This document shows positions 2,738 through 37,514 of a stretch of 37,514 bases of DNA, one piece after another. The notes under the pieces were generated by a model. It had not been told where the DNA came from and made no database searches. It worked only from the letters and a program-made list of their open reading frames with translations. The first letter of the stretch is position 1, and the number at the start of each line of letters is the position of its first letter. This DNA is from a virus (taxonomy: Duplodnaviria > Heunggongvirae > Uroviricota > Caudoviricetes), in IMG/VR virus record IMGVR_UViG_2534681759_000011. One strand, written 5' to 3'. The position numbers were made by a program, and so were the translations under genes.

Positions 2738-2753
2738 TCAAGAGGCTAGTGGG

Positions 2754-2957: not shown

Positions 2958-2978
2958 AACAATGAACAGAGCACCATC

Positions 2979-3329: not shown

Positions 3330-3339
3330 CAGGTGCTTT

Positions 3340-3627: not shown

Positions 3628-3635
3628 AGGGCGTT

Positions 3636-3881
3636 GTGATGGGCAAAGAATATAAAACTCTCATTAACAAAGCACTTGAGCGTTTTTATTTTCGCTTAAG
3701 TGCATCAGGCGCTCATGCTGAACGTGCGGCCCGTGACTCATTGACCAGAGCAATCCGAAGTCTGTATGACGTAGCTTTTTACGCTGATGATCTGGATGCA
3801 CTTAACGAACTTTCCGAGCTGATCTGTGCCGCAGAATGCGGGGAACATATTGAACCGTATAAGCTGGGGAATATCGCATGA
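3636..3881 (+). CDS. Hypothetical early protein (81 aa)
   Basis: ORF with coupled downstream gene (ATGA overlap at 3878-3881). Confidence 0.45.
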   Translation: MMGKEYKTLINKALERFYFRLSASGAHAERAARDSLTRAIRSLYDVAFYADDLDALNELSELICAAECGEHIEPYKLGNIA

Positions 3882-3991
3882 GTATATTTATCTCATGGCT
3901 TGTTCTGATTATTTCGGTGGCCTGCGCTATTGGGATTATGCGAATTATTCATTCAATAAAAAAGATTGAACGCTTTTTCACTGGCGAATAA
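3878..3991 (+). CDS. Small single-pass membrane peptide (37 aa), possible host-kil or toxin-like peptide
   Basis: Translation MSIFISWLVLIISVACAIGIMRIIHSIKKIERFFTGE; ATG overlaps the stop of the preceding gene; below the ORF-track length threshold. Confidence 0.35.
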   Translation: MSIFISWLVLIISVACAIGIMRIIHSIKKIERFFTGE

Positions 3992-4077
3992 CAGAACAAA
4001 TAAAACCACAGATTAAATAAGAAAATGTAAAAACAATCCGCATTCGCGGAGGTATTCGCACACGCCAAGGAGGCGTA

Positions 4078-4281
4078 ATGGCAATTAAGCATTTTCCTGT
4101 CGTTCGTTTTACCTCCAGAGGGCGGGAATACGAAGTCGACGAACGCCTGATTACCACAATCGACAAACACCGTTCAGAAAAGGATGCACATCACATCTAT
4201 CTCACTGACGGCACTTACTTCTGCGCCACGAATGTGGTGCGGGTGAACCTTATCCGACAGGTACAGGAGTCACGCAGATGA
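4078..4281 (+). CDS. Hypothetical early protein (67 aa)
   Basis: Strong RBS AGGAGG upstream of the ATG. Confidence 0.5.
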   Translation: MAIKHFPVVRFTSRGREYEVDERLITTIDKHRSEKDAHHIYLTDGTYFCATNVVRVNLIRQVQESRR

Positions 4282-4523
4282 CCATTCTGGACTATATTGC
4301 CGCCAATCCGGGGTGTAGCGGTGGAGAAATCGCCGCAGCACTGAATACCCCAACCACAGCCATTAATGCGGAGTTACGCCGACTCTGGCGCAGCGGTTCA
4401 GTCATAAGAAAAGAGCGCAAAACAGGCGGTCGCTTTTCTTACCAGATAAACCCGATGCCGTTCGGGTGTGGCAATCCACTTACCAACATGTTTAACCAGC
4501 TACTGAAGGAAGCCAGAGCATGA
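4278..4523 (+). CDS. Hypothetical early protein (81 aa)
   Basis: Start overlaps the previous stop; not otherwise recognisable. Confidence 0.4.
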   Translation: MTILDYIAANPGCSGGEIAAALNTPTTAINAELRRLWRSGSVIRKERKTGGRFSYQINPMPFGCGNPLTNMFNQLLKEARA

Positions 4524-4819
4524 GCGCCATCAACCACAAGGAATTACGCGAACTGGCGACTGACCTGCAACGAATGGCAACGCCTCAAAAATTACTGGCG
4601 TTTCGCGCAATGCTCTCGCCGTCTGCTGTGCTGGCGCTGCTGGATGAGCTGGAGCACGCCAGAACCACACCTCTCGCCATTCGCCTGACGCTCCGTCATG
4701 AAATCGAGGATTTCTGCGCGACGTTGGAGGCGCCAGGCGAACCGGAAACGCCGGAAGCAATACAGCAAGAGCTGCTGCAACGCATTGACAAGGTTTTTGA
4801 TTTTTTTCTGAACCACTAA
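4520..4819 (+). CDS. Hypothetical early protein (99 aa)
   Basis: Start overlaps the previous stop. Confidence 0.45.
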   Translation: MSAINHKELRELATDLQRMATPQKLLAFRAMLSPSAVLALLDELEHARTTPLAIRLTLRHEIEDFCATLEAPGEPETPEAIQQELLQRIDKVFDFFLNH

Positions 4820-5141
4820 GAAACCAGAACATGCACACACAAAAAAACCGCTTGCCATGCCGCAATCAGTCAGGTTACATTTCCGCTGCACCTCATAAAA
4901 CGGGTGCCGGGTTTCGCAGCCCGCTGACAAACGTAGCGCACAACCGCGCCAGCGGTTTTTTTGTGCGTACTGTATCGCCACGTCTTTTTCGCATCAGAAT
5001 TATGGTGGGGCGTACGGGGCCGACTTCGGTCGGGCCGGGTTCTGCGTTTGCCGGTACTGCGAACCTCGTACGTCTCGCCACCCACAGTTTCGCAGCTCTG
5101 GATGGTGAGTTTTCAAAACTTACACACGTAGAGGCCACACC

Positions 5142-5372
5142 ATGGCAAACCGCAAACAGCACCGCGCTATCGCGGAGCGTCGTCACATCCAGACTGAAAT
5201 CAACCGCAGACTTTCCCGCGCATCACGCGTCGCGCAAATCATGCACATCAATATGCTGCATGAGCGTAGCTGCGAACTTTCAAACCTCTATTCATCCGCT
5301 GTTTTCAGTTATCTGGCGGATGATCTGCGCGAGCTTCAGCAGCTCATCCAGCAGCAAAACAAACTCCATTAA
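5142..5372 (+). CDS. Hypothetical small basic protein (76 aa)
   Basis: Arg-rich N-terminus; follows a GC-rich structured intergenic region; weak RBS. Confidence 0.3.
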   Translation: MANRKQHRAIAERRHIQTEINRRLSRASRVAQIMHINMLHERSCELSNLYSSAVFSYLADDLRELQQLIQQQNKLH

Positions 5373-5444
5373 TTCCTGTTCCGGGCCTTTCCTGCACCTT
5401 GCGGCGGGAGGCCTTCGCACATCTGTAACAAGAGGATTGCCGCA

Positions 5445-7724
<2,280 letters not shown>

Positions 7725-7776
7725 ATTGACAACAGTCTGCCGCGACACCCTGAATGGCATAACGAAGTAAATCACT

Positions 7777-10660: not shown

Positions 10661-11620
10661 ATGAAAATTTGTATCGACGACGGCTCCACCAACATCAAGC
10701 TGGCATGGACTGAGAACGGCGAACGCCGCAACGCCATCAGCCCGAACAGCTTCAAGTCGGAATGGTCTGCGCCGTTCGGTGGCACGCATCCCGCGAACTA
10801 CATGCTTGATGGCGTGCGCTATGGCTTTGATCCGGTCAGCGATCGTTTTGTCCAGACGACTGACACGCAATACCAGTACAGCGATGTGAATGTAATCGCC
10901 ATTCATCACGCGCTGGTCAAATCAGGCATCACGCCACAGGAGGTGGATGTGGTTGTCACCCTGCCACTGAGCGAGTATTTCGACACAAACGCACAGCCGG
11001 ACATGGCCAACATCAACCGCAAAAAAGCGAACGTCATGCGCCCGGTGGAGTACCAGAACGGCGAAGCATTCACTATCCGTAACGTACGGGTTATGCCTGA
11101 ATCCATTCCGGCTGGCTTTAAGGCACTGGCTGACATGAGTCCGTTTGAATCCCTGCTGATTGTGGATTTGGGCGGAACCACGCTGGATGTGGCAAAGGTT
11201 CAGGGGCAGCTGGCAGGTATCAGCCAGGTGTTTTGCGATCCAAACGTAGGCGTTTCCCTGATGGCTGATTCCGTGCTGTCGGTGATGGCCACTAACGGTA
11301 TGCGTACCAGTCACCACATCGCCAATACCATTATTGAGCACCGTCACGATGAAGCCTGGCTGCGCCAGCACATTCACAATGACGCGCATTACAACAGCCT
11401 GATGGCGGTTATTCGTGAAAAGGAGGAGACACTGAAACAACGAGTGATCCGCGCGCTGGCGGGTTTTTCCGGTTACGGGCGGGTGATGGTTGTCGGTGGA
11501 GGGGCGGAGATTGTGGCACCCGCTATCCGCGAAGCCTGCGGAGTTAATGCGACTTTCATCGCGGACGGGGTGCCACAGTTTGCTCTGGTTAATGGGCTGT
11601 ACGCAATGAACAAGGAGTAA
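10661..11620 (+). CDS. parM: Actin-like segregation ATPase, ParM/StbA family (319 aa)
   Basis: Actin-fold motifs IDDGSTNIK (phosphate 1), LIVDLGGTTLDV (phosphate 2) and MVVGGGAE (adenosine); remembered close similarity to plasmid R1 ParM. Confidence 0.85.
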   Translation: MKICIDDGSTNIKLAWTENGERRNAISPNSFKSEWSAPFGGTHPANYMLDGVRYGFDPVSDRFVQTTDTQYQYSDVNVIAIHHALVKSGITPQEVDVVVTLPLSEYFDTNAQPDMANINRKKANVMRPVEYQNGEAFTIRNVRVMPESIPAGFKALADMSPFESLLIVDLGGTTLDVAKVQGQLAGISQVFCDPNVGVSLMADSVLSVMATNGMRTSHHIANTIIEHRHDEAWLRQHIHNDAHYNSLMAVIREKEETLKQRVIRALAGFSGYGRVMVVGGGAEIVAPAIREACGVNATFIADGVPQFALVNGLYAMNKE

Positions 11621-11624
11621 ACCA

Positions 11625-11936
11625 ATGACGACACCAACCAGAAGAATAAGTTTCTATCTGAAGCCAGCTGCCGTCAAGAACGAAGGAGAAGCATGCGCAT
11701 GGCTGGACAGCCTTACACCAGAAGCCCGCAAAAGCGGCCAACGCGTGGCTTTTCTGGCCGGGCTGGCACTTCTGAAGACGAATCCGGCAGAGGCTTACCG
11801 ACTGGCCGCATGGGCTGATGATGAGATGTTACCTGTGACACAAATCAGCTCAAAAAAGTTTGAAGCACAGTCTGCACCAGTGGCTAAGATAACCAGCCAG
11901 ATGGCTGGGAATATCCGGGCGTTATTTCCTGGGTAA
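11625..11936 (+). CDS. parR: ParR-like centromere-binding adaptor protein (103 aa)
   Basis: Immediately downstream of parM; N-terminal RISFYLKP and AFLAGLALL segments resemble R1 ParR. Confidence 0.55.
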   Translation: MTTPTRRISFYLKPAAVKNEGEACAWLDSLTPEARKSGQRVAFLAGLALLKTNPAEAYRLAAWADDEMLPVTQISSKKFEAQSAPVAKITSQMAGNIRALFPG

Positions 11937-21297: not shown

Positions 21298-21448
21298 CAC
21301 TCCCACATGGGGAAATCTCGGTATATGGGGCGACCGCCTTCTGGATGCACTGGAAACCTGTAACGCGGATAAACGGGCCATTGAATTACTGGAACAGCGC
21401 AGGCTGCAACGACTGAACAACGAGGACAACAACCATGCTGAAAACTGA
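21158..21448 (+). CDS. lysC: LysC / Rz1-like outer-membrane lipoprotein spanin component
   Basis: Lipobox LLTGC after a short signal peptide; overlaps lysB in another frame; Pro-rich. Confidence 0.5.
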   Translation: MNAPTLCLMLVLLTGCAGTLNAPRPAPSVRLIPQTLTIPVTPPPVPDTPTWGNLGIWGDRLLDALETCNADKRAIELLEQRRLQRLNNEDNNHAEN

Positions 21449-21902
21449 TTCCCTGCGTGAAGCCATGACCCGTTCATGCCGATGGTGTCAGGCCAACCCG
21501 GAAAAATTCACCATTTTCGTGGAGAGCGGCAACATTGAAACGACCGGAGAAACGCCCTCGTTTGTTTAACGCTATCAGATGGTGATGTTTGTCATGGATT
21601 ACGCCGGGGAGCTGGACGACCTCACGCTGCCGCTACTGGCGTGGTTATCCGAAAATCAGCCACAGTTGTTGCTCAATCCGGAGCGTAATCAGGACATCAA
21701 ATTTTCCGCCGTTATCAATGACGATGACAGCGCCGATCTCCTGTTTACGCTCCCCCTGCGGGAACGCGTTCGCATTACGCGCAACAGTCAGGGGACACCG
21801 CAGGCAGAACACCTGCCGGAGCCAAAACCCCGTCTGCCCTCTTCCGAAGGCGACTGGTCGCATGTATTCCAGGATGTGACGTGGGGTGAAAGCAATGGAT
21901 AA
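21435..21902 (+). pseudogene. R: Tail completion protein R, interrupted by an in-frame TAA at 21567-21569
   Basis: A 44-codon ORF with good RBS (GAGGA) ends at TAA; the same frame resumes 9 nt later for 107 codons with no RBS of its own; combined length about 155 aa. Confidence 0.5.
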
Positions 21903-23108: not shown

Positions 23109-23455
23109 CAACCCGCTACACAGGAATGAATCCGGACGGGACGGGAAACCTGAACGATATGGAGCACCTGAAACAGTCAGTCAGGGACATCCTGACCACC
23201 CCGCTGGCAAGCCGGGTTATGCGACGGGAATATGGCAGCCTTGTGCCTGATTTGATTGACGAACCCATGAATAACACCACGCGTCTGCAATGCATGAGTG
23301 CTGCCGTGATTGCGCTGACACGATGGGAACCCCGCATTGCCCTGGATGCCATCGACGTTGTCTGGAAAGCGGGAGGCCGCGCCGGGGTGACGTTGTCGGG
23401 CACTGTCATGCAGACCATGCAAAATGTTGAATTAACCATCACGCTGAGGGAGTAA
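23105..23455 (+). CDS. W: Baseplate wedge protein, P2 gpW family (116 aa)
   Basis: Size and position; remembered gpW similarity. Confidence 0.8.
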   Translation: MTTRYTGMNPDGTGNLNDMEHLKQSVRDILTTPLASRVMRREYGSLVPDLIDEPMNNTTRLQCMSAAVIALTRWEPRIALDAIDVVWKAGGRAGVTLSGTVMQTMQNVELTITLRE

Positions 23456-23457
23456 TC

Positions 23458-24354
23458 ATGCCTGCCGTTGACCTTGCCCAGTTACCGGAACCCGCCATCA
23501 TCGCGGAGCCTGATTTTGAGGCAATTCTGGCTGACACAAAGGCCATGATGATTGCGTCCTATCCTGCTGAACAGCGTGAAGCCGTCTCCGCCGCGCTGGA
23601 GCTGGAATCGGAACCCCTGAACGTTATCGCCCAGGCAACAGCGTTTCGTGAAATGCTGTTACGCCAGCGGATCAATGAGGGTGCACGCGCCTGCATGCTA
23701 AGCCACAGCGCCGGGACAGACCTGGACAACCTCGCGGGCAATATGAACACAAAGCGCCTGGTTATCACTCCGGCAACGGATACCACCGACGCAGTGATGG
23801 AAAGTGACACCTCGCTGAGACTGCGGGCGCAACGGGCGTATGACGGTCTGAGTGTTGCTGGCCCGTCAGGTGCATACGAGTATTTTGCACGCAGCGCCAG
23901 CGGTCTGGTACGCGACGCGCGGGCCATCAGTCCGTCTCCGGCAAATGTGACGGTTTCCATCCTGTCCACTGAAGGCGACGGCACAGCAACGGAGGCGTTG
24001 CTTAATACCGTTCGCGCCGTTCTGAATGCAGAGGATACCCGCCCGGTGGCCGACCGCCTGACCGTACAGAGTGCCAGAATCGTGACATGGCGGCTGAATG
24101 CAAAACTGTACTTTTACCCCGGCCCGGAATCCGAACCTATTCTGGCCGCGGCTGAATCGTCGTTCAGGAAGTGGCTGGCTGAGCAGGGGCTTATCGGTCA
24201 GGACGTGGCGTTGTCCGCCATTGCTGCCGCACTGCATGTGCACGGTGTGCAACGCGTGGAGATAATCGAACCCACACAGAATATGGCCATCAGCGACATA
24301 CAGGCGGCGCGCTGTGAGTCGTTCACCATCAGCGAAGGTGGGCGCAATGAGTAA
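23458..24354 (+). CDS. J: Baseplate protein J (298 aa)
   Basis: Size and position in the V-W-J-I-H order. Confidence 0.85.
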   Translation: MPAVDLAQLPEPAIIAEPDFEAILADTKAMMIASYPAEQREAVSAALELESEPLNVIAQATAFREMLLRQRINEGARACMLSHSAGTDLDNLAGNMNTKRLVITPATDTTDAVMESDTSLRLRAQRAYDGLSVAGPSGAYEYFARSASGLVRDARAISPSPANVTVSILSTEGDGTATEALLNTVRAVLNAEDTRPVADRLTVQSARIVTWRLNAKLYFYPGPESEPILAAAESSFRKWLAEQGLIGQDVALSAIAAALHVHGVQRVEIIEPTQNMAISDIQAARCESFTISEGGRNE

Positions 24355-24877
24355 TTCACTGTTACCACCATCAGCCAGCAGTTTCATGCGTTGTGCCGAA
24401 GCTGTCGGAACGCGCATTACAGACATCCCGGTAGACCTCAACACGCTGTGGTCGCCGGACACCTGCCCGGTGCACCTGCTGCCTTATCTCGCCTGGGCAT
24501 TTTCCGTTGACCGTTGGGATCGCAACTGGCCGGAAGAGGCAAAACGACAGGTGATTCGTGATGCATGGCTGATACACCGACACAAAGGGACCATCAGCGC
24601 ACTGCGCAGGGCCATTGAGCCGCTGGGATACCTCATTCGCGTGTCTGAGTGGTGGGAGTTCGGCGGAGAACCGGGAACATTTACCGTTGAAGTCGGCACA
24701 CTGGACAGTGGCGTGACGGAGGAAATGTATCTGGAAATGGAGCGGTTGATTGCTGATGCCCGCCCGGTCAGCCGCCACATGACAGGGCTGAATATCATTC
24801 AGGAGATCCCGGGAGATATTTTCGCGGCGGCAGCAACTTACGACGGTGAAGTCATTACCATTTATCCGGACGATTAA
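24347..24877 (+). CDS. I: Baseplate protein I
   Basis: ATG at 24347 overlapping the J stop; annotated ORF begins 33 nt upstream. Confidence 0.8.
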   Translation: MSNSLLPPSASSFMRCAEAVGTRITDIPVDLNTLWSPDTCPVHLLPYLAWAFSVDRWDRNWPEEAKRQVIRDAWLIHRHKGTISALRRAIEPLGYLIRVSEWWEFGGEPGTFTVEVGTLDSGVTEEMYLEMERLIADARPVSRHMTGLNIIQEIPGDIFAAAATYDGEVITIYPDD

Positions 24878-24879
24878 GC

Positions 24880-26439
24880 ATGAGTACCACAACACGTAAA
24901 TTTAAAACCGTTATCACCAATACGGGTGCCAAAAAATTAGCTCAGGCAGCCGCGCCAGATGGTAAGCCTGTCCGCCTGACTCATATGGCCGTGGGTGACG
25001 GCGGCGGCACTTTACCCTCGCCAGACAGTAAGCAGACCCGTCTGGTGCATGAGGTGTGGCGACACACTGTTAATCGCGTCTTCCTGGACGCAACACATCA
25101 GAACCGCATTATTGCGGAGCTGGTTGTTCCTCCAGAAACGGGCGGATTCTGGATCCGGGAAATTGGTGTGTTTGATGAGCACGGCGATTTAATCGCAGTA
25201 GGCAATACTGCCGAAAGTTACAAGCCAACCGTTGCCGAAGGGTCAGGACGTGCACAAACATTTCGCACCATTCTGACCGTATCCAGCACTGCCACTATGG
25301 CGCTTACCGTGGATAACACCATGGTAATGGCCACAGTGGATTACGTGGATGACAAACTGAAAGAGCATGAACAGTCACGACGTCACCCGGACGCCTCGCT
25401 GACCGCAAAAGGCTTTGTTCAACTTAGCAGCGCCACTAACAGCACATCTGAAACGCTGGCTGCGACACCTAAGGCTGTTAAGGCAGCATATGACCTGGCT
25501 AATGGCAAATACACCGCACAGGACGCAACCACTGCGCGGAAAGGGATAGTTCAGCTCAGTAGCGCCACTAACAGCACATCTGAAACGCTGGCTGCGACAC
25601 CTAAGGCTGTTAAGGCAGCATATGACCTGGCTAATGGCAAATACACCGCACAGGACGCAACCACTGCGCGGAAAGGGATAGTTCAGCTCAGTAGCGCCAC
25701 CAACAGCACGTCTGAAACGCTTGCGGCAACGCCAAAGTCTGTTAAGGCGGCATATGACCTGGCTAATGGCAAATACACCGCACAGGACGCTACCACTGCG
25801 CGAAAAGGGATAGTTCAGCTCAGTAGCGCCACTAACAGCACATCTGAAACGCTGGCTGCAACGCCGAAAGCAGTAAAGGCCGCATATGACCTTGCTAACG
25901 CAAAATATACCGCTCAGGACGCAACGACGGCACGAAAAGGGATAGTTCAGCTCAGTAGCGCCACTAACAGCACATCTGAAACGCTGGCTGCGACGCCAAA
26001 AGCTGTTAAGGCGGTAATGGATGAAACGAACAAGAAAGCGCCCTTAAACAGTCCTGCACTGACCGGAACGCCAACAACGCCAACTGCGCCAAAAGGGACT
26101 AATAATACTCAGATCGCAAGCACGGCTTATGTGATGGCCGCGATTGCCGCACTTGTAGACTCGTCGCCTGACGCACTGAATACGTTGAACGAGTTAGCGG
26201 CGGCGCTGGGAAACGACCCGAATTTTGCGACCACCATGACTAAAGCGCTTGCGGGTAAGCAACCGAAAGATGCCACCCTGACGGCGCTGGCCGGGCTTGC
26301 TACTGCGGCAGACAAGTTTCCGTATTTTACGGGGAATGATGTCGCCAGCCTGGCAACCCTGCAAAAGTCGGGCGGGATATTCTTGCGAAATCGACCGTTG
26401 CCGCTGTTATCGAATACCTCGGTTTACAGGAAACGGTAA
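24880..26439 (+). CDS. H: Tail-fibre protein H, constant N-terminal part; frame breaks near 26366
   Basis: N-terminus MSTTTRKFKTVITNTGAKKLAQAA… matches remembered P2 gpH; contains 132-bp tandem repeats; the conserved continuation KVGRDILAKSTVAAVIEYLGLQETVN is in the -1 frame from 26364. Confidence 0.75.
   Translation: MSTTTRKFKTVITNTGAKKLAQAAAPDGKPVRLTHMAVGDGGGTLPSPDSKQTRLVHEVWRHTVNRVFLDATHQNRIIAELVVPPETGGFWIREIGVFDEHGDLIAVGNTAESYKPTVAEGSGRAQTFRTILTVSSTATMALTVDNTMVMATVDYVDDKLKEHEQSRRHPDASLTAKGFVQLSSATNSTSETLAATPKAVKAAYDLANGKYTAQDATTARKGIVQLSSATNSTSETLAATPKAVKAAYDLANGKYTAQDATTARKGIVQLSSATNSTSETLAATPKSVKAAYDLANGKYTAQDATTARKGIVQLSSATNSTSETLAATPKAVKAAYDLANAKYTAQDATTARKGIVQLSSATNSTSETLAATPKAVKAVMDETNKKAPLNSPALTGTPTTPTAPKGTNNTQIASTAYVMAAIAALVDSSPDALNTLNELAAALGNDPNFATTMTKALAGKQPKDATLTALAGLATAADKFPYFTGNDVASLATLQKSGGIFLRNRPLPLLSNTSVYRKR
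25411..26010 (+). repeat. In-frame tandem repeat, 132-bp unit, about 4.5 copies, inside the tail-fibre shaft
   Basis: Repeated 44-aa unit ARKGIVQLSSATNSTSETLAATPKAVKAAYDLANGKYTAQDATT; unit starts at about 25411, 25543, 25675, 25807 and 25939. Confidence 0.85.
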
Positions 26440-27384
26440 ATCAGGCTTCTGGTGCATTACAGAAAAAACAGAACGGCGCAGATATTCCAGGAAAAGATAC
26501 CTTCACCAAAAATATTGGTGCCTGCCGCGCATATAGCGCATGGCTGAATATTGGTGGCGATAGTCAGACCTGGACAACCGCACAATTCATTTCGTGGCTG
26601 GAGAGTCAGGGGGCATTTAACCATCCTTACTGGATGTGCAAAGGCTCATGGGCTTATGCAAACAATAAGGTCATTACAGATACAGGTTGCGGAAATATTT
26701 GTCTTGCAGGTGCTGTGGTGGAAGTTATTGGCACTCGCGGCGCAATGACCATACGCGTTACTACGCCGAGTACATCCAGCGGTGGCGGAATTACTAACGC
26801 TCAATTCACCTATATTAATCATGGTGATGCTTATGCTCCTGGCTGGCGACGAGACTACAACACGAAAAACCAGCAGCCTGCATTTGCTTTAGGGCAAACA
26901 GGAAGCAGGGTTGCAAATGATAAAGCTGTTGGCTGGAACTGGAATAGCGGCGTTTATGATGCAGATATCAGTGGCGCATCGACATTAATCCTCCACTTTA
27001 ATATGAATGCGGGGAGTTGCCCTGCTGTACAGTTCCGCGTGAATTATAAAAACGGCGGTATCTTTTATCGTTCAGCGCGTGATGGTTATGGTCTTTGAAG
27101 CTAACTGGTCAGAGTTTTACACCACAACCCGCAAACCCTCTGCGGGGGATGTTGGTGCATATACGCAGGCAGAATGTAACTCAAGGTTTATTACAGGTAT
27201 TCGCCTGGGCGGTCTGTCATCTGTTCAGACATGGAATGGTCCCGGCTGGTCTGACAGGTCAGGTTATGTCGTTACGGGTTCAGTTAACGGAAACCGTGAT
27301 GAATTAATTGATACAACTCAGGCAAGGCCAATTCAGTATTGCATTAATGGAAGGTGGTATAACGCGGGGAGTATTCAATTATGA
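26370..27384 (+). pseudogene. Tail-fibre variable C-terminal segment, expressed orientation; reading frame broken
   Basis: Open in the -1 frame from about 26364 to 27098, then continues in another frame from 27079 to 27384 ending [13 protein letters not shown]; glycine-rich distal-fibre character. Confidence 0.5.
26407..26432. promoter_or_regulatory. gix/hix/cix-type recombination site (left inverted repeat of the invertible segment)
   Basis: TTATCGAATACCTCGGTTTACAGGAA; close to the remembered Mu gix consensus and an inverted copy of the site at 29336-29361; lies inside the tail-fibre reading frame. Confidence 0.75.
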
Positions 27385-27914
27385 TGCACTTAAAAACATT
27401 ACTGCTGGCAACCCTAAAACAAAAGAGCAATACCAGCTAACGAAACAATTTAACATCAAATGGCTTTATTCAGATGATGGAAAAAACTGGTATGAGGAAC
27501 AAAAGAACTTTCAGCCTGATACGTTGAAAATGGTCTATGACCGTAACGGCGTTATTATTTGTATTGAAAAGGATGTTTCAGCAATTAATCCAGTAAGGCG
27601 CAAGCGTCGTTGAATTACCTGATATTACAGCAAATCGCCGGGCTGATATTTCGGGTAAATGGATGTTCAAAGATGGCGTAGTGATAAAGCGAACTTATAC
27701 CGGGGAAGAGCAGAGGCAGCAGGCAGAGAATGAAAAGCAAAGCCTGTTGCAACTTGTCAGGGATAAAACCCAGTTATGGGACTCACAGCTACGGCTGGGC
27801 ATCATTTCCGACGAGAGTAAACAAAAATTAACAGAGTGGATACTCTTTGCGCAGAAAGTCGAATCTACAGACACTTCCAGCCTGCCAGTAACATTTCCCG
27901 AACAACCTGAATGA
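27381..27914 (+). pseudogene. Tail-fibre assembly chaperone, expressed orientation; split by frameshifts
   Basis: Pieces [25 protein letters not shown]… and …[22 protein letters not shown]… parallel the intact minus-strand paralogue but lie in different frames; the A-run at 27392-27396 and the region near 27592-27600 separate the frames. Confidence 0.5.
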
Positions 27915-27942
27915 GACAAGGCCCGATAGCGGGCCTTAATTT

Positions 27943-28470
27943 TTATTCAGGCTTTTGTGGCCATTCAGGATTTGCCGTATCCACACGGCTGACCAGAACA
28001 CTGTAGCGTTCCCATGCTTCCAGTCGTGTGCGCTCCTCGTCTGTTGCCATATTCAGCCTGGCAGCGCGTTCCAGTGGCTGGATGACTGATTCAGTTTCGG
28101 AAAGCAATGCGGCCTTTTGTGATTCGGCCTGTTGTTGCTGTTCGTCTGCTGTATAAATCCGCTTAACCACAGTTCCGTCCTTAAACATCCACTTCCCTGA
28201 ATCATCGGCACGACGATTGACTGTTATATCTGGAATCTCAACGACACTAAAGCCTTCGGGATTAAGCGTTGAGGCATCTTTGGTTATGGCAACAATAATA
28301 TTATTTTCGTCGTAAACAATCTTTATGGTGTCTTCCTGAAAGCTATTTACTTCCTCATACCAGTTTTTACCGTCTTCTGTATATAACCAGATAACATCAA
28401 AATTCTTTGTTAGCTGATATTGCTCTTTTGTTTTTGGATTTCCTGACTTAATATTTTTTAAATGCTGCAT
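27943..28470 (-). CDS. Tail-fibre assembly chaperone, alternative copy inside the invertible segment (175 aa, intact)
   Basis: [24 protein letters not shown]… typical of tail-fibre assembly proteins; silent in the present orientation. Confidence 0.8.
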
Positions 28471-28473
28471 AAT

Positions 28474-29335
28474 TTACACCTGTGCTACGTTATACCATGT
28501 GCCATTGATGTATTTTTGTATTGGTCTGAAGATGGCTTCATCATCGCCATCTACTTCACCAATGATTCTTAATCCGGTAATTGCGTGTCCGGCTTTTTCA
28601 TAACGACCACCACGCGCCATCAATTGAACAACTCGCGTACCCAGGCGAACATCTTTTACATAGCGTGAATCAAAATTCCCCCAGTTGCTGGGCTGTATCT
28701 GACCGTTAACAGAAAATATTACCGAGTTATCTGTATTTCGCTGGCTATAGAAATGCCATCCTGCCTCATCGCCTAACTCTGCAACTACTGGACGGGTTGA
28801 AGCACCCCATAAATTAAACGTTACATTCTTTGTGGAGGTGTTGGAGCTGGATAGCGAGATTTTTTTACATCACCTGCCTGAATGTTTTTAAAAGCAATAG
28901 CAACTCCATTCTGAAAGCGGAATACTCGCTGACTATTAGCGTAAACATCAAGAATACCGTCTCCATTCTGTTTAAATCCGGTATCATTATCACCAAGAAC
29001 AATAGAGCTACCACCTAACGCATTCGTCGTACCAACTCCAAGGCTGCCATTAATGACGGCATTAACAAGAATATTTAGTGCATCCCATTTCAGCGTCATC
29101 AGGTCTTTTGTTGTGGTGCCCTGGCGGCTTCTCCATTTGAAATATTCATTGCCGTTGTCGCCTGTTTCTAAACCAACATGAATGAATCAGTATCGCTGTC
29201 GGCATCATTTTTAAATCCAATCTTCGCCCAGTCAGTATTTCGAATCCAGGCAAGGATTGAGTCGTTTTCAAAAGTAAGCCCACCGGACAAGGTATCGCCA
29301 TTCTTTTGCACGGCGTTCCTGGCCCTGTTTACCGT
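28474..29335 (-). pseudogene. Alternative tail-fibre C-terminal segment (P2 H-like), promoterless and frameshifted
   Basis: Minus strand encodes LGLQETVNRA…GLTFENDSILAWIRNTDWAKIGFKNDAD…, …LETGDNGNEYFKWRSRQ…TLKWDALNILVNA… and a C-terminus INGTWYNVAQV, matching remembered P2 gpH, but in three frames; breaks near 29164-29180 and at the T7 run 28860-28866. Confidence 0.6.
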
Positions 29336-29361
29336 TTCCTGTAAACCGAGGTTTTAGATAA
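29336..29361. promoter_or_regulatory. gix/hix/cix-type recombination site (right inverted repeat)
   Basis: TTCCTGTAAACCGAGGTTTTAGATAA, near-identical to the remembered Mu gix sequence; immediately upstream of the invertase gene. Confidence 0.8.
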
Positions 29362-29415
29362 TGGCCGTTTCTGGCCTGCATGGCATGATTTGCGCTTTTG
29401 GACGGGAGATTCAGT

Positions 29416-30003
29416 GTGCTGATTGGCTATGTAAGGGTATCAACAAATGACCAGAATACAGACCTGCAACGAAACGCTCTTGTTTGTGCAGGATGTGAAC
29501 AGATATTTGAAGATAAATTAAGCGGGACAAAGACAGACCGACCGGGATTAAAACGCGCTTTAAAGCGCCTTCAAAAAGGTGACACGCTGGTTGTCTGGAA
29601 ACTGGATCGCCTCGGGCGAAGCATGAAACATCTGATTTCTCTCGTCGGGGAACTACGGGAGCGAGGGATTAATTTTCGCAGTCTGACCGACAGCATAGAT
29701 ACATCTTCTCCAATGGGGCGTTTTTTCTTCCACGTGATGGGGGCCCTGGCTGAAATGGAACGTGAATTAATTGTTGAACGTACACTGGCCGGACTGGCGG
29801 CAGCGCGCGCACGGGGGCGCACAGGCGGACGTCGACCGAAGCTGACAAAAGAACAGCATGAGCAAATAGCAAGGCTGATTAAAAACGGTCACGACAGAAA
29901 ACAACTGGCAATAATTTACGGCATTGGTATATCGACGATTTATCGTTACCACCCCGCAGGAGAACCAAGCGGAACAATTGAGAAGAGTCAGGAAACAAAA
30001 TAA
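29416..30003 (+). CDS. Serine DNA invertase, Gin/Hin/Cin/Pin family
   Basis: GTG start behind GGGAGA; N-terminus (M)LIGYVRVSTNDQNTDLQRNAL… with catalytic Ser; nearly matches remembered Mu Gin over the catalytic domain; C-terminal HTH. Confidence 0.9.
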   Translation: MLIGYVRVSTNDQNTDLQRNALVCAGCEQIFEDKLSGTKTDRPGLKRALKRLQKGDTLVVWKLDRLGRSMKHLISLVGELRERGINFRSLTDSIDTSSPMGRFFFHVMGALAEMERELIVERTLAGLAAARARGRTGGRRPKLTKEQHEQIARLIKNGHDRKQLAIIYGIGISTIYRYHPAGEPSGTIEKSQETK

Positions 30004-30031
30004 CCGCTAATCTGACCATTAGCGGTTTTTG
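30004..30031 (+). terminator. Rho-independent terminator after the invertase gene
   Basis: Hairpin CCGCTAAT-N6-ATTAGCGG followed by TTTTT; sits between convergent genes. Confidence 0.6.
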
Positions 30032-30038
30032 TGTTAAA

Positions 30039-30533
30039 TCAGAACATCCCTTTAACTGAACTGGCCGCGCTGTTAAGAGATGATGTCACCTTATCTTTGA
30101 AGCCGGACAGCATATCGCTGAATGATGAGGATTGCAGGCGCTCCCGCAAATCCTCATCACAGCGTTCAAGTGTCAGTGAAAATTCTATCTTTTTCGCCTT
30201 ACCGTAGCGATCAAACTCGGAACGGGTCGTATTCGTTCCGGTCAGGACATACATGCCGTAAATCTGCCCGACACCATCAATCAGAGGCCAGGGGCGTCCT
30301 GTATATGCCTGCGTGGTCAGCAGCGAAAGCGACACTTCGCCACCTGTAATTTCAGGATAAAGCACGCCAGAAAGCACGATGCGATCATCACCTGCACCGA
30401 TATACTGCCAGCTTGCTGAGCGGTTTACGCGCTCATTTTTCACATGCCGCCAGCTTTTGTTTTGCTGTAACTGCTGATGCGGCAATGTGCGCAGCTCAAA
30501 AACAAACATGCCGTAGATCATCATCATGGCCAT
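30039..30533 (-). CDS. U: Tail protein U, P2 gpU family (164 aa)
   Basis: Size and position downstream of the tape measure gene. Confidence 0.75.
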   Translation of the reverse strand: MAMMMIYGMFVFELRTLPHQQLQQNKSWRHVKNERVNRSASWQYIGAGDDRIVLSGVLYPEITGGEVSLSLLTTQAYTGRPWPLIDGVGQIYGMYVLTGTNTTRSEFDRYGKAKKIEFSLTLERCDEDLRERLQSSSFSDMLSGFKDKVTSSLNSAASSVKGMF

Positions 30534-30539
30534 GACTCC

Positions 30540-33383
30540 TCAATCTTTATCGTAAAAACTGCCACGTCCGGCACGGGCGCGCCGTTCCATTTCTGCCCTG
30601 ACCATTTCACCGACCAGTTTCGCCAGTTCGCGGGGATTCTGTGTAACAACGTTATGCAGATGAACATGAATTTCACCGCCAAATCCGGAGGCAACAGGCT
30701 CCCGGTTACGGGAATTTGCAGGAACTGATGCCACTGGCGATCGTATAGCCTCCGCCACCGGGCGGGAGCTGGCCGCAACAACAGGGACCAGCGCCGGAGG
30801 CAGCGGAGCCGGAACCACGGGTGTGATAGTAATTGCGGGGGCAGGCTTACTGACCTGCGCAATCTTCCGCTCCTGCCACTCCCCACGAACAGCAAGTGCG
30901 CGGGGCAGGTTCTTAAAGACAATATCACCGGGGCCAATGCGTTTTTTCGTCTCATCAACCAGCTTACCTGTGTTATCAGCAATTTTGCTGAGTCTGCGTA
31001 GCGTACCGGTATTGCTGTCTGTGAGTGGTTTGTTGTCTTTGGGTTTATCACCTCCGGTGCCATTGCCATTTTCCACAGGCTTCGGCGGATTGATTTTCGC
31101 CAGGTCCCCCTGAAGCAAGGCAACCTTGTCCTGAAGAATGGCCGCACGCTGTGCGTCTTCGATTTTCTTGCGCGCCCTTTCAGCTTCATCCGGAAGGACG
31201 CCAAGTTTTTCAAGTATCCACGCCAGCGTATCCAGTAGCATTTTTGCAGGTGTCAGAACAAGCTGTAACGCACCGCCAAGAACGTTACCGAATATCTCGC
31301 CAGCACTGGTACATTTATCCAGCGTTTCCTTACTGGACTCCATCGGTGACAGCAGCGATTTAAACCAGTTAAACACCTGGCTGATCCCGCTTCCGATTGC
31401 GTCAAAAACAGGGCCAAACCGTTCAAAGGTTTCGCGCAACGGAGCCAGCCGTTCCATAATCCCACTGAACACCCCTGCATAAAACGCCTTGATGGGTTCC
31501 CAGTATTTCCAGATGAGAACCGCCGCAGCCACAAACGCAGCAGCAATCAATCCGACCGGACTGAACAGCGCCCCGATAGCGCCTCCCAGTAACGAAATGG
31601 AACCCGTCACCATTCCCCATAATGCAGGCAGAACCCTGACAACATTCAATGATCCGGTCAGGAGGGAAAAACCAAGACGCAGTTTTGCCAGTGGGCCAGC
31701 AAGCACACCAATAGCCAGCGACAACGAGCCTATGGTTGCAGTCATTGCCAGCAGAGCACCGCCTGCAACCAGTAGCTGGCGCGTCAGTGCCGGATGGGCC
31801 TGCGCCAGCGCCGTCACCTTCGATACCACCCGCGTGAGCCACTGCGTGACAGAACGCTGCGGACCGTCAATCAGATCTGCAATGCGGATGCGCACCCCTT
31901 CCCATGCACTGCCGAGTGATTTCAGATCGCCGTCAAGGTTGTTGGCCATAACCTTTGCTGTGCGTTCAGCCTCACCGCGCGCGCCTTCAAGTTCTTTTCT
32001 CAGTTTGGGTAAGGAGCCGTCACCTGCCGCATCAACGAGGGCCATAAATGATGTGAAAGCCTCTTCTCCGGCAATATCCTTAAAGAACGATACCCGGTCA
32101 ACTTCCCCGTATTTGCGGGTGGCTTTATAAAGGTCAGCCAGCAGATCTTCCATCGGGCGCATTTTGCCGTTCGCGTCAGAGACGGACACGCCCAGCTCTT
32201 TCAGCGCCTCTGCTGCTGCCTTTGGCGGTGATGCCAGACGAGCCAGGCTGGCACGCATTGCCGTCCCGGCATCACTCCCTCTGATACCCATATTCGCCAG
32301 CACGCCAGCCATCGCTGCAGCCTGCTCCAGCGATATTCCCAGCTTACCCGCCACCGGACCGGCATATTTCATGGTTTCGCCCAGTGCGCGAAGGTCAGTG
32401 TTGGTACGGGTAAACGCTGCAGTGAGTGTGTCACCGACCCGGTCCATCTGGTCAGCAGAAAGGCCGAACTGCGTCAGGATATTTGAGCCAATATCCGCCG
32501 TCTCGCCGAGATCCATACCGCCAGCCGTTGCCATGCTCAACACGCCGGGAAGCGCAGCCTGAATGGCCTGCGGTGTGAAGCCAGCCATTGCAAGAAATGC
32601 CTGCCCACTGGCGGCATCGCCTGCGGTGAACTGCGTTTCAGAGCCAAGTTTTAACGCCTGCTCACGCAGCGCCTTAAACTGCGGGCTGTTCTGGTCGATT
32701 CGCGTCAGCGCCTGAACGCGGGACATCTCTTTCCCGAACCCGATTGCGGGCTGCAAAAAACGCCCGGCAGCATAGCCGCCCGCCGCTGCCGCACCAATTG
32801 CCAGTACACCACCTGTTTTCAGTTTTCCCGCTGTTTCCTGCGCACGCGAATACCGCTCACGCGCCCGCGTTACACGCGTAAGCGACTGCCGTTCGCGTTC
32901 AAGCTGGTTGTTGTACTGTTCGGTGCGCCTGATGGCCTGTTGAATGGTGTTATCGCTGCCTGTCAGGGAAATGCCGTGGCGTTTCAGCTCTCCGCCAAGC
33001 TCCCGCATTTTCTGAATTTCCCGTATGCGCGATTCATTCAGGCGTTCAAGCCGGGTGCTTAACTGCTGCATCAGCTTTTGTTGCTTTTCGCTGAGCACTG
33101 TACCCGTGCGTTGTAACTGATTAAGGGCGTTAAGCTGGCGTCGTGCTTTCACGATACCCGCATCCGCTTTACTGACAGCGTCGCGGGCGCGCTCAAATGA
33201 ACGCGCCTGACGCTCGAGATTTTTGATCGCCCCCTGCGTTCGCTGGATGGAGTCACCAAACTGCCCCATCAGGCGGCGGGCGTTTTCGGCAGGCCGGGTC
33301 AGCCTGTCAACGGCGCTGAAAGCGACCCGGATATCAAGAGTCTTCATTGTCTGCATTCCCGCTGCGAAGTGCCGCCCGCTCAC
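30540..33383 (-). CDS. T: Tail tape measure protein, P2 gpT family (947 aa)
   Basis: Long, Ala/Gly-rich, helical with hydrophobic central segments; uninterrupted 2.8-kb reading frame. Confidence 0.85.
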   Translation of the reverse strand: MSGRHFAAGMQTMKTLDIRVAFSAVDRLTRPAENARRLMGQFGDSIQRTQGAIKNLERQARSFERARDAVSKADAGIVKARRQLNALNQLQRTGTVLSEKQQKLMQQLSTRLERLNESRIREIQKMRELGGELKRHGISLTGSDNTIQQAIRRTEQYNNQLERERQSLTRVTRARERYSRAQETAGKLKTGGVLAIGAAAAGGYAAGRFLQPAIGFGKEMSRVQALTRIDQNSPQFKALREQALKLGSETQFTAGDAASGQAFLAMAGFTPQAIQAALPGVLSMATAGGMDLGETADIGSNILTQFGLSADQMDRVGDTLTAAFTRTNTDLRALGETMKYAGPVAGKLGISLEQAAAMAGVLANMGIRGSDAGTAMRASLARLASPPKAAAEALKELGVSVSDANGKMRPMEDLLADLYKATRKYGEVDRVSFFKDIAGEEAFTSFMALVDAAGDGSLPKLRKELEGARGEAERTAKVMANNLDGDLKSLGSAWEGVRIRIADLIDGPQRSVTQWLTRVVSKVTALAQAHPALTRQLLVAGGALLAMTATIGSLSLAIGVLAGPLAKLRLGFSLLTGSLNVVRVLPALWGMVTGSISLLGGAIGALFSPVGLIAAAFVAAAVLIWKYWEPIKAFYAGVFSGIMERLAPLRETFERFGPVFDAIGSGISQVFNWFKSLLSPMESSKETLDKCTSAGEIFGNVLGGALQLVLTPAKMLLDTLAWILEKLGVLPDEAERARKKIEDAQRAAILQDKVALLQGDLAKINPPKPVENGNGTGGDKPKDNKPLTDSNTGTLRRLSKIADNTGKLVDETKKRIGPGDIVFKNLPRALAVRGEWQERKIAQVSKPAPAITITPVVPAPLPPALVPVVAASSRPVAEAIRSPVASVPANSRNREPVASGFGGEIHVHLHNVVTQNPRELAKLVGEMVRAEMERRARAGRGSFYDKD

Positions 33384-33497
33384 GCCAGCTAACCACTTCG
33401 CCGGGCGTCATCATGAAGATTTCGGCGGGCGACCAGTTAAAAATAACGGCAATATCTGCCACAAAGTCTTCTATGTGCTCAAAGCACACAACCGTGA

Positions 33498-33863
33498 TCA
33501 GGCTTCCGTCGCCTGTTCGTTCTTCCCGCCAGAGTCCGCACCGCTCAAAAAATTTACGGCAACCACACATAACTGAATAAAGTCACGGGATGCCATTTTT
33601 TTGATCGTCACTTCATCCAGTCGCGGTGATGTCACGCGTGACAGCAGCGTAAACATGGATTCCGCTTTCAGATTCAGCACATCAGACAACGACAAATCTC
33701 GCAGAGATCCAGCCTGCTCAATAGCTCCGGTGATCTCCACATACGTGATTTTTTCGCCGCCTCGCTCAATTGGTTGGGTAAGTTTTACGCCACGCTCACT
33801 GGTTTCTTTCACAGTGTCAGCAACGACCGTGTTTTCGGTATCGATGTTTTTCGTCTCTTTCAT
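33498..33863 (-). CDS. E: Tail assembly chaperone E; the E' product extends to 33334 by programmed -1 frameshift
   Basis: E frame ends …VNFLSGADSGGKNEQATEA; the -1 frame entered at the TTTTTTG slip site continues KFFERCGLW… to a stop at 33334, overlapping the T start. Confidence 0.75.
   Translation of the reverse strand: MKETKNIDTENTVVADTVKETSERGVKLTQPIERGGEKITYVEITGAIEQAGSLRDLSLSDVLNLKAESMFTLLSRVTSPRLDEVTIKKMASRDFIQLCVVAVNFLSGADSGGKNEQATEA
33545..33551 (-). promoter_or_regulatory. Slippery heptamer T-TTT-TTG for programmed -1 ribosomal frameshifting (E to E')
   Basis: Minus-strand sequence AAATTTTTTGAG; same slip site as described for P2 E/E' and analogous to lambda G/GT. Confidence 0.6.
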
Positions 33864-33917
33864 CAGGAAACTCCTTTCAGTCAGAGGCGACGCACTGCGC
33901 CGCCTGCATATTACTTA

Positions 33918-34430
33918 TCAGCCAAGCCCAAGCGCGGAACGGATGCGATCGGGCACAATGTCCTTGCCGTCCTTCCGGTAAATGAAGTTCAGCAGGTCAA
34001 TCTCCCACAACGGGCGATCGTTAACACTCAGCTTGTAGTAGGTGTTTTTAATGGCGTAAGTGTGTGATGTGGCTTCGCCCTGTTTGGCTTCCCCCATATC
34101 AATTTCCGTCACACGTCCGCGCATTTCGACTTCATACAGGTCGCTTTCTGCATCGGTGTAGTATTCACCCGCAAAACGCAGCAGCGTGCCGTCAATCGTG
34201 CCGCCATACTTCAGGAACAGCTCACGAACTGCGCCCCCCATGACAAAGCTCGCATCAAGCGCGGAGTCGTCCAGACCGAGATCAATACTTACCGCACCCA
34301 TCATGCCACCACCCCGGTAGCTGTCGGTTTTGCGCGTCAGCTTAGGCAGAGTGACGGACGTCACCTTACCCACTTCGTTTTCACCATCCACAAACAGCGT
34401 AAAAAAGCGAAGATGTTTTGGCACAGCCAT
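33918..34430 (-). CDS. FII: Tail tube protein, P2 gpFII family (170 aa)
   Basis: Size and position after the sheath gene. Confidence 0.85.
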   Translation of the reverse strand: MAVPKHLRFFTLFVDGENEVGKVTSVTLPKLTRKTDSYRGGGMMGAVSIDLGLDDSALDASFVMGGAVRELFLKYGGTIDGTLLRFAGEYYTDAESDLYEVEMRGRVTEIDMGEAKQGEATSHTYAIKNTYYKLSVNDRPLWEIDLLNFIYRKDGKDIVPDRIRSALGLG

Positions 34431-35614
34431 CAGGCACCTCCCAGCACCGCAAATGCAGGTTCAAAGTATTCATCAGTAAACGTCTGGTAAAGCTCCATGT
34501 CTTCCAGTGGCGGAACAGGCGTATATTTGTAGCGAATACGCACACGCCCCTGACGTAAATCCGTGGTGCTGTTATCCACCACGTCATACCAGCACTCCGC
34601 GCCAATCAGTTTCCCGGCAGTAACCAGTGAATCCAGTTTTGCCCTGATGGCACTGATAACATCCTTCACGTTCGCAGGCGTCAGTGGACTGTCGATGGTT
34701 TCAAACTGCGCTTCTGCAATTGAATCAGCCAGCACCTGTGCGGTTCGGGTATACACCTCAAAGATGTAGGCGTTCGTTTCCGGTGTGCGGTTGCCCCAGA
34801 AGCGGAACCCGTTGCGACGAATAATGGTCGTGATTTCTTTGTTGTTGAGGCTGTTGGCATCACTGTCTTCGGCCTGCAACGACCAGAACACATGCCTGGA
34901 CATTCCCAGCACATTTTTAACAGGAACGTTGGACAGCGATTTGTGCCAGCCCTGCTCATGGTCAATGTACGCACGAAGGCCGCACGCATAGGCAGGCGCG
35001 GGGAACGTTTCGTTTTTGCCACTTTTCGGGTTGTAGGCGATGAAGTCCGGCCATAAGAGCATCACCTCACGTTCGTTGAATTTCTGGCGGTAGGTAATCG
35101 CCTCAGCCATCGTGTTACAGCCGTGACATGAGGCATACACAAACGCGCGCAGTTTACCCGCAATCACGCACAGGGATTTTGTTACCGCCTCCGTGTCCAG
35201 CTCCGGCGCGGCCAGAATACGCGGACGGTATCCGATGCTTTCATCCTGCTCTGCAACAAGCAGCGCATACATCCCCGTATAGCTGCCGTCAGATTCAGAA
35301 CCACCGATAACCAGTTGATCCTGCGTTTTTCCGTCTTCTTCTTTGTGTTCAGCCACGCGAACGACGATCACCTTTGTGCTCACCTGGTCTGCGATGGCCT
35401 TAAGCGCACGATAAAGCGTCCCCGTTGTCCCGCATTTTCCCAGCACGTCATTGACGCGGGTCAGCAGTGTGGGCTTGTTCAGCGGGAACAGCTTCGCGTC
35501 CGCATCATCCGCCGTTGCCACGATACCGATAACGCTGGAATCAACATCGTTAATCGCTGTTACCAGGTCGGTATTTTCCGTAACACGGGCACCATGAAAA
35601 CGAGTTTCACTCAT
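34430..35614 (-). CDS. FI: Contractile tail sheath protein, P2 gpFI family (394 aa)
   Basis: Size and remembered gpFI similarity. Confidence 0.9.
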   Translation of the reverse strand: MSETRFHGARVTENTDLVTAINDVDSSVIGIVATADDADAKLFPLNKPTLLTRVNDVLGKCGTTGTLYRALKAIADQVSTKVIVVRVAEHKEEDGKTQDQLVIGGSESDGSYTGMYALLVAEQDESIGYRPRILAAPELDTEAVTKSLCVIAGKLRAFVYASCHGCNTMAEAITYRQKFNEREVMLLWPDFIAYNPKSGKNETFPAPAYACGLRAYIDHEQGWHKSLSNVPVKNVLGMSRHVFWSLQAEDSDANSLNNKEITTIIRRNGFRFWGNRTPETNAYIFEVYTRTAQVLADSIAEAQFETIDSPLTPANVKDVISAIRAKLDSLVTAGKLIGAECWYDVVDNSTTDLRQGRVRIRYKYTPVPPLEDMELYQTFTDEYFEPAFAVLGGA

Positions 35615-37184: not shown

Positions 37185-37373
37185 CAGGCAGAATTGCCGG
37201 AGTAACAAAAAAGCGATAGATTACGTGCGGGTGCCTTTCGGCTGATGGTCGGAGGGAATACCCGAAGGCCGGATGTGGAAAGGCCCCGGAAAACATTTCT
37301 GTTTAACCGAGGCCCTAACCCGTCAACCTAGCAAGTGATAGGTTAGCGCCTCTCCAACAAAGGAGCAAGCGCT

Positions 37374-37514
37374 ATGTCGCAAAAATCGCTTACGGCCATC
37401 ACGTTCTGCGTGACGGTAATCCTCATCATCTGGATGCTGCACGGTTCGCTGTGTGAAATACGGATGAGCTTCTGGGGAGCGGAGTTTGCGGCGTTCTTAC
37501 AGTGTAAGCAGTAA
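37374..37514 (+). CDS. Hok/Gef-family type I toxin (46 aa)
   Basis: MSQKSLTAITFCVTVILIIWMLHGSLCEIRMSFWGAEFAAFLQCKQ: one transmembrane helix followed by the Hok hallmark SLCEIR; RBS AAGGAG; GC-rich structured leader 37200-37373; below the ORF-track length threshold. Confidence 0.7.
   Translation: MSQKSLTAITFCVTVILIIWMLHGSLCEIRMSFWGAEFAAFLQCKQ

Follow-up and report, generated by a model that had tools for sequence, protein, structure and literature searches.

Invertible tail-fibre cassettes are described in the G segment of Mu, the C segment of P1 and the P segment of e14, which are flipped by Gin, Cin and Pin. In each of these systems an Sv-U / U'-Sv' arrangement stands next to a serine invertase gene, and both orientations of the segment are found among strains. 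The locus described here has the same layout, likewise with an adjacent serine invertase gene and with both orientations among strains, and its cassette DNA is 92-93% identical to the G segments of Mu and D108 and 89-95% identical to the C segments of P1 and P7. This locus lies in a 37,514-nt stretch of DNA (the window), which is part of contig AQFA01000039.1 from the E. coli assembly GCA_000355255.2 at NCBI, a 2013-era draft. Positions in that record equal the window coordinate plus 340083 (e.g. 366444, 367175, 367474, 367677, 368951, 369252 and 369258). The window contains a P2-like prophage in which the 3' end of the fibre gene falls within an invertible cassette of the Mu G-segment type. 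The fibre, assembly and silent-cassette genes of this prophage are interrupted by single-base frame breaks, and our sequence comparisons suggest that these are very probably repeat-associated assembly or consensus errors in GCA_000355255.2 and not mutations of the phage.

The invertible cassette and the repeats of the window

The cassette lets the fibre end in either of two C-termini, and each is paired with a separate assembly gene: Sv and tfa on the plus strand, tfa' and Sv' on the minus strand (Table 1). This order is collinear with Mu S'/U'/U/S. The two crossover arms are 94% complementary, and the left arm lies within the fibre gene. The left crossover is also the inversion joint in ETEC-2264, where this prophage has 26407-29361 in the opposite orientation, demonstrating that both orientations exist. 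The annotations of four relatives list the invertase gene as a recombinase. Judged from features common to independent assemblies, the invertible fibre system of this prophage appears to be intact. In itself this cassette is unremarkable; the oddity of the finding lies elsewhere.

In E. coli 90-9280 and H10407, the fibre cassette is a two-copy repeat of 3.8-3.9 kb with 98% identity between the copies. The second copy is seen in close relatives of the same ETEC lineage, where it occupies a lambdoid prophage next to potB, and from these relatives we infer that the source strain probably has it as well. The sole other repeat in the window is IS100, a multi-copy element for which further copies are shown in close relatives of the source assembly. 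The IS100 insertion is recent; the site is empty in relatives with 99.9% identical flanks.

Table 1. Features of the prophage, its invertible cassette and the lesions, in window coordinates.
Feature	Position	Strand	Remarks
IS100	5777-7731	+	5-bp target duplication ACAGT; three private indels, zero substitutions
gpR tail-completion gene	21435-21902	+	in-frame stop at 21567-21569; same stop in two relatives
Tail-fibre gene (constant part and expressed variable part Sv)	24880-27378	+	Pfam Phage_tail_fib, Phage_fiber_2
Five tandem 132-bp (44-aa) repeats, fibre shaft	25408-26067	+	lesion-free, same as the L001 relative
Lesion 1, lone A missing	26361-26362	+	TGACAAAAG > TGCAAAAG; outside homopolymer
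Left crossover site, gix-like inverted repeat	26407-26440	.	31/34 bases as in Mu G-segment boundary
Lesion 2, T inserted	27092	+	GG^CT > GGTCT; alignment to relatives
Lesion 3, T>C	27376	+	fibre stop TAA to CAA; private to GCA_000355255.2
Tail-fibre assembly gene, expressed cassette	27381-27914	+	Caudo_TAP; 177 aa in relatives; broken in window
Lesion 4, A6 > A5, expressed assembly gene	27392-27396	+	sole homopolymer contraction
Lesion 5, T inserted, expressed assembly gene	27594	+	CAG^AAG > CAGTAAG; alignment to relatives
Tail-fibre assembly gene, silent cassette	27943-28470	-	intact, 175 aa
Silent variable fibre part Sv'	28474-29311	-	Gp34_trimer; 278 aa in relatives; broken in window
Lesion 6, T missing, in Sv'	28868/28869	.	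ACTATC > ACATC; alignment to relatives
Patch with six substitutions, lambdoid paralog allele	29120-29181	-	both 1-nt insertions of Sv' fall inside it
Two separate 1-nt insertions in Sv'	29169 and 29175/6	-	alignment to relatives
Right crossover site, gix-like inverted repeat	29328-29361	.	33/34 bases as in Mu G boundary
Serine DNA invertase, Gin/Cin/Pin/Hin type	29416-30003	+	intact, 195 aa; PF00239 Resolvase and PF02796 HTH_7

Lesions in the fibre locus and in IS100

Between 24701 and 30576 (5.9 kb), the window matches E. coli 90-9280, whose locus is intact, at every base apart from seven 1-nt indels, a single T>C substitution and a 62-bp patch of paralog allele. Four independent intact relatives (L001-L004) are unanimous against the window at every lesion, and the frame breaks that the initial annotation had listed at six places are all present in this alignment. 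That annotation had also described several breaks as homopolymers one base short. This description holds for the A-run at 27392-27396, the one homopolymer contraction among the seven indels, but not for the rest, four of the seven being insertions. In addition, a break assigned to the T7 run at 28860-28866 is misplaced, as the run is unchanged and the deletion lies two bases past it. The stop loss at 27376, the six-substitution patch and the three indels in IS100 had gone unmentioned.

The tail-fibre gene encodes 832 aa in intact relatives versus 519 aa in the window, where a stop is reached at 26437-26439, and the insertion at 27092 brings the fibre reading back into the original frame. Lesion 1 precedes the left inverted repeat by 46 bp, yet it is still within the two-copy repeat, and every fibre lesion lies at least 430 bp inside the edges of that repeat. 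Reverting the listed lesions together with the substitution at 27376 yields the sequence of L001, with an 832-aa fibre identical to WP_099483571.1. The patch in Sv' is 100% identical to the second cassette copy in five relatives of the lineage. Copying of each indel from the paralog was also considered as an origin, and was rejected given the agreement of both known copies against the window at every indel.

IS100 displays the same indel-only pattern as the fibre cassette. Compared with other IS100 copies, it has gained an A at 6772, lost an A at 7030 and gained an A at 7060, all of them 670 bp or more from the element's ends. Its istA gene is truncated, and a compensated 30-nt frameshift lies in istB. 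Across 21.4 kb of near-identical unique DNA there are 2 private substitutions and 0 private indels. In the 5.0 kb of repeats, 10 private indels stand against one unexplained private substitution (27376), with nine of the indels taken from the listing of private changes by region and one, 27391, from the alignments to relatives. Our own calculation from the indel counts gives a probability of (0.189)^10, or about 6e-8, for this distribution, and the clustering of lesions in repeat DNA is far beyond chance. The proposal that the lesions are confined to repeated, invertible or multi-copy DNA is borne out, with all ten indels in IS100 or the cassette repeat. The tape measure, capsid and terminase genes are indeed clean, having no private indels and the same lengths as in relatives.

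The lesions are private to a single assembly. Among 5,426 complete genomes of E. coli, none matched a 28-mer spanning any of 11 lesions; a 92-nt control sequence from the same region matched 710 records. In a scan of one genome per species, the lesion 1 sequence had no exact match. AQFA01000039.1 is the only contig on record with the truncated products (519, 88, 92 and 83 aa), and the intact neighbouring 175-aa silent assembly protein has an exact match in 69 blocks of the public collection. When tested for inheritance, no fibre or IS100 lesion was common to independent assemblies of relatives. Two other draft assemblies, UASF01 and UGEB01, have their own, different private indels within the same cassette.

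The prophage carries real defects elsewhere, namely the gpR stop and the IS100 insertion. The gpR stop is a substitution common to 90-9280 and ETEC-2264, in which the gene is annotated as a pseudogene. Because these two relatives are independent, gpR is a genuinely inherited pseudogene, in contrast to the fibre lesions. If the fibre lesions were real, the prophage could make no functional fibres, as had been correctly pointed out, though this loss would matter little because gpR already has a nonsense codon and IS100 has already inserted. A further private indel, at 23453, falls in a 2-3 nt spacer between gpW and gpJ, where it breaks no gene and is harmless; the module around it is naturally diverged (~97% to the best genome).

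Origin of the frame breaks

We propose that the true object is an ordinary, intact P2-like fibre gene with an Sv-U / U'-Sv' cassette between gix-like repeats, and that the adjacent serine invertase would flip this segment. In bridging the cassette and IS100 repeats, the assembler may have been left with reads that could not be uniquely placed, and the repeat consensus may have stayed uncorrected or been built from a mixed read pile. The outcome would be 1-nt indels scattered through the repeats, a lone substitution and a short stretch with the allele of the other copy, with unique DNA called correctly. The errors themselves could be due to unpolished long-read consensus, gap filling or wrong-copy reads. 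That errors persist in repeats after short-read polishing is established (PMC8812927) and speaks for an artefact; homopolymer-length errors are the commonest residual error of long reads (PMC8812927). It counts against an artefact that most lesions here are not homopolymer-length errors. Moreover, a prophage already rendered defective by the gpR stop and IS100 could conceivably be under weaker selection in its fibre genes, and real Sv' frameshift alleles common to independent assemblies occur in other strains. Reads from cells with the flipped cassette were considered as the main cause and rejected: they leave the IS100 lesions unexplained, lesion 1 is outside the invertible segment, and the A6 run at the assembly-gene start is common to both cassettes.

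Genuine pseudogenisation, in which a decaying prophage has acquired real frameshifts in its fibre, assembly, silent-cassette and IS100 transposase genes, is unlikely. Bacterial divergence usually shows substitutions in excess of indels, and ten indels versus one unexplained substitution in DNA otherwise identical to relatives reverses this pattern. A recent IS100 would need to have accumulated three indels and zero substitutions, and nothing comparable is seen in 21 kb of adjacent unique DNA. The existence of true defects does lend decay some support, as the gpR stop is found in 90-9280 and ETEC-2264 and IS100 has a clean target duplication. Similarly, a 1-bp Sv' deletion common to three independent records indicates that such alleles are natural, and the position of most lesions outside homopolymers also fits real mutation. 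Against this, every lesion is private to one assembly, and the lesions end at the borders of the repeat DNA. The initial annotation had judged an artefact at least as likely as pseudogenisation, and this judgement is strengthened by the two-copy cassette, the indel-only pattern of IS100, the privacy of the lesions and the 10:1 ratio of indels to substitutions.

A real but localised mutational process is very improbable, whether error-prone repair associated with inversion or inter-cassette conversion, or programmed or phase-variable frameshifting. Segment inversion does occur in nature, but the fibre-locus indels are spread across 2.8 kb, away from the crossover sites, and IS100, which is unlinked to the invertase, has the same pattern. 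The genes are uninterrupted in relatives, which leaves no conserved recoding site. Of the seven breaks, six are outside any run and the seventh is in a short A-run (six A), so a phase-variable tract is likewise lacking. For the patch at 29120-29181, which includes the two insertions, real gene conversion by the lambdoid copy is a possible origin. Adenines on the coding strand at five of the six changed bases (29120-29126) had suggested diversity-generating mutagenesis, but this was rejected, as the mostly-adenine cluster is exactly the allele of the lambdoid paralog. No reverse transcriptase is annotated in the tables of three relatives over the whole prophage, and none was matched by Pfam in 14880-36439 of the window. 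Fainter still is the prospect that the indels are real and come from a process that favours 1-nt indels in duplicated or mobile DNA (the two-copy cassette and IS100) and spares unique DNA. If true, it would be the bacterial equivalent either of repeat-directed mutation or of error-prone repair acting while one repeat copy converts another.

Under the favoured reading of consensus error in repeats, the finding is almost certainly a data-quality flag and not biology. An annotation of this assembly would call the fibre gene, the assembly gene, the silent cassette and the IS100 transposase pseudogenes, and the prophage fibreless. The evidence says that the conclusion of a fibreless prophage would rest on sequencing errors. 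The case also offers a simple way of telling artefact from real decay without reads, by three questions: is the lesion private, is it an indel with no substitutions alongside, and does it fall within multi-copy DNA?

Comparison with known systems

The lesions share several traits with known residual errors of repeat regions: they occur in multi-copy DNA only, they are mainly 1-nt indels, they are private to one assembly and the surrounding unique DNA is free of them. A further shared trait is the short patch with the allele of the other repeat copy. Unlike the commonest residual errors of long reads (PMC8812927), the lesions are mostly not homopolymer-length changes. Both the gpR stop and the fibre lesions interrupt the frame of a tail gene, but the fibre lesions differ from this inherited pseudogene in being indels found in no other record. 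Compared with the Mu G, P1 C and e14 P segments, the cassette here is located in a P2-like prophage, where a P2-type fibre shaft carrying tandem repeats of 44 aa is fused to it. Compared with Mu in particular, the expressed cassette in the deposited orientation corresponds to Mu S'-U'.

Fibre-region lesions and intact relatives

The nearest relative of the prophage is that of E. coli O114:H49 90-9280. In this and three other genomes the genes are unbroken, encoding a fibre of 832, 788 or 656 aa, assembly proteins of 177 and 175 aa, and a silent C-terminus of 278 aa. Window positions 24701-30576 match 90-9280 apart from the lesions tabulated below, all of which are missing in the four relatives, and reverting the indels and the stop-codon change restores the 90-9280 sequence, including an identical 832-aa fibre. 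Comparison with these relatives confirms that the deposited sequence carries a frame break at each place listed in the initial annotation. However, the annotation described several lesions as one base short in a homopolymer, and this holds for one lesion only; of the seven indels, four add a base, and the T7 run at 28860-28866, named as a break, is itself unchanged. The contrasting cleanness of the tape measure, capsid and terminase genes is borne out, as these genes and the portal gene do not differ in length from their counterparts in relatives.

Features and lesions in window coordinates
Feature	Position	Strand	Details
IS100	5777-7731		IS21 family; clean 5-bp target duplication ACAGT
gpR tail-completion gene	21435-21902		in-frame stop 21567-21569
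Tail-fibre gene	start 24880	+	
Fibre-shaft tandem repeats	25408-26067		five, 132 bp (44 aa) each
Inverted repeat pair	26407-26440 and 29328-29361		34 bp
Expressed fibre C-terminus and assembly gene	between the inverted repeats	+	
Second assembly gene and silent fibre C-terminus	between the inverted repeats	-	
Serine invertase gene	29416-30003		Pfam Resolvase and HTH_7
Lesion	26361/2		lone A absent
Lesion	27092		T insertion
Lesion	27376		T>C, fibre stop TAA to CAA
Lesion	27392-27396		A6>A5
Lesion	27594		T insertion
Lesion	28868/9		T absent
Lesion	29120-29126		five substitutions
Lesion	29169 and 29175/6		two 1-nt insertions
Lesion	29181		T>A

The truncated products (519, 88, 92 and 83 aa) are recorded only in AQFA01000039.1, the contig holding the window, among 153 billion gene positions, and the adjacent intact 175-aa assembly protein is present in 69 blocks. 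None of 5,426 complete E. coli genomes matched a query of eleven 40-mers that each had a lesion at the centre, which obliges every seed to cross it; with a 92-nt query from this region, 710 records matched. The draft assemblies UASF01, UGEB01 and UGEA01, which are NCTC long-read drafts, have their own, differing private indels in the cassette, and these assemblies also show many private breaks throughout the same tail genes. A 1-bp deletion in the silent variable fibre part (Sv') is common to three independent records (AP024518, CP026766 and PSSS01; positions ~3940-3950 of loci L020, L021 and L022), and is therefore probably a real allele in those strains. These Sv' and draft observations were drawn from loci L020, L021 and L022 and loci L017, L019, L023 and L025.

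Private changes in multi-copy DNA

The fibre cassette is a two-copy repeat in this lineage. Window positions 29075-29166 are 100% identical to a second locus, a lambdoid prophage adjoining potB, in 90-9280, ETEC-2264, H10407, TW10828 and one more genome, and this lambdoid copy is ~98% identical over 3.8-3.9 kb (window 25672/25803-29606). The window has the P2-copy base at ~40 copy-distinguishing sites and the lambdoid-copy base at six sites in 29120-29181, a patch that also contains two of the insertions and stems either from a chimeric consensus or from genuine gene conversion. At each indel the two copies are alike and both differ from the window.

IS100 is also affected. In a whole-window comparison, three close relatives lack the element here, and the insertion as such is real in structure. 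Relative to other IS100 copies it has three single-base indels and no substitutions; one indel truncates istA, and the remaining two shift the istB frame over 30 nt, the second compensating for the first. The insertion point precedes the end of a small ORF by 34 nt, and this ORF lies upstream of the replication gene; in 90-9280 and ETEC-2264 an IS100 is instead found between the genes for gpU and the tape measure.

Across 21.4 kb of near-identical unique DNA we counted two private substitutions and no private indels, versus seven substitutions and ten indels in the 5.0 kb of IS100 and the cassette region. The ten include the indel at 27391, which was added to the automated count because its gap placement is ambiguous in one relative. 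The chance of all ten indels falling in 19% of the sequence, calculated from these counts, is ~6e-8. The lambdoid-copy allele accounts for six of the seven substitutions in repeat DNA. Every fibre lesion is 430 bp or more from the edges of the repeat, and those in IS100 are 670 bp or more from the ends of the element. An extra private indel, at 23453 in the gpW-gpJ spacer, breaks no gene; the gpW/gpJ module is naturally diverged, and across the baseplate genes gpW, gpJ and part of gpI (~23380-24700) identity to the closest of 5,426 complete E. coli genomes is only ~97%. Identity with 90-9280 starts at 24701, placing a recombination joint within gene I.

Origin of the frame breaks

The frame-break cluster is very probably not biological. 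Its simplest account, which we consider highly probable, is a consensus that is wrong where the assembler bridged repeats. The lesions are private, are nearly all indels and end at the borders of multi-copy DNA, a recently transposed IS100 was also hit, and one patch carries the allele of the other copy. The initial annotation had favoured an artefact at least as strongly as pseudogenisation, and the private, indel-dominated, repeat-bounded lesions support the former. Any specific assembly route is more tentative, as most lesions are not homopolymer errors. Such consensus errors are established to persist after short-read polishing, since reads do not map uniquely within repeats (PMC8812927). 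Genuine pseudogenisation would likewise explain broken frames, but is unlikely: natural decay is expected to bring substitutions too and to ignore repeat borders, and three indels without a substitution are not expected in a recently moved IS element. A special mutational or recoding mechanism is more improbable still, as relatives have no conserved frameshift site for recoding, the breaks lie away from the crossover sites, and the allele of the paralog fully accounts for the adenine-rich cluster of substitutions. The value of the cluster, read as assembly error, is as a caution on assembly GCA_000355255.2.

The prophage and its invertible cassette

The P2-like prophage spans integrase to ogr/hok in the window. 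Exact protein matches assign the window to the 1.10-Mb contig AQFA01000039.1 of GCA_000355255.2, in which record positions equal window coordinates + 340083, and locus L010 equals window 14880-36439 with no differences. A true defect, absent from the initial annotation's list, is the inherited gpR pseudogene. Its stop is common to 90-9280 and ETEC-2264 (annotated as a pseudogene, 'internal stop') and absent in H10407, so the prophage is probably defective whatever the fibre lesions.

Between the invertase gene and gpD, positions 30039-35614 hold the genes for sheath, tube, gpE, tape measure and gpU on the minus strand, alike in all relatives; compared with the gene order of P2, this tail block is inverted. 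According to the annotation of relatives, ParM-like and partition-protein genes (10661-11936) and a hok/gef toxin gene (~37370-37510) are also present, plasmid-style maintenance functions that are unusual in an integrated P2-like element.

Fibre sizes in near relatives (656, 788 and 832 aa) differ by multiples of 44 aa, indicating that strains or assemblies differ in the number of shaft repeats. In ETEC-2264 the same prophage has 26407-29361 flipped, indicating that the segment inverts in nature. The cassette is a well-known type of host-range switch and holds no novelty: its DNA shares 92-93% identity with the Mu and D108 G segments and 89-95% with the P1 and P7 C segments, its gene order is collinear with Mu S'/U'/U/S, and its inverted repeats equal the Mu G boundary at 31/34 and 33/34 bases.
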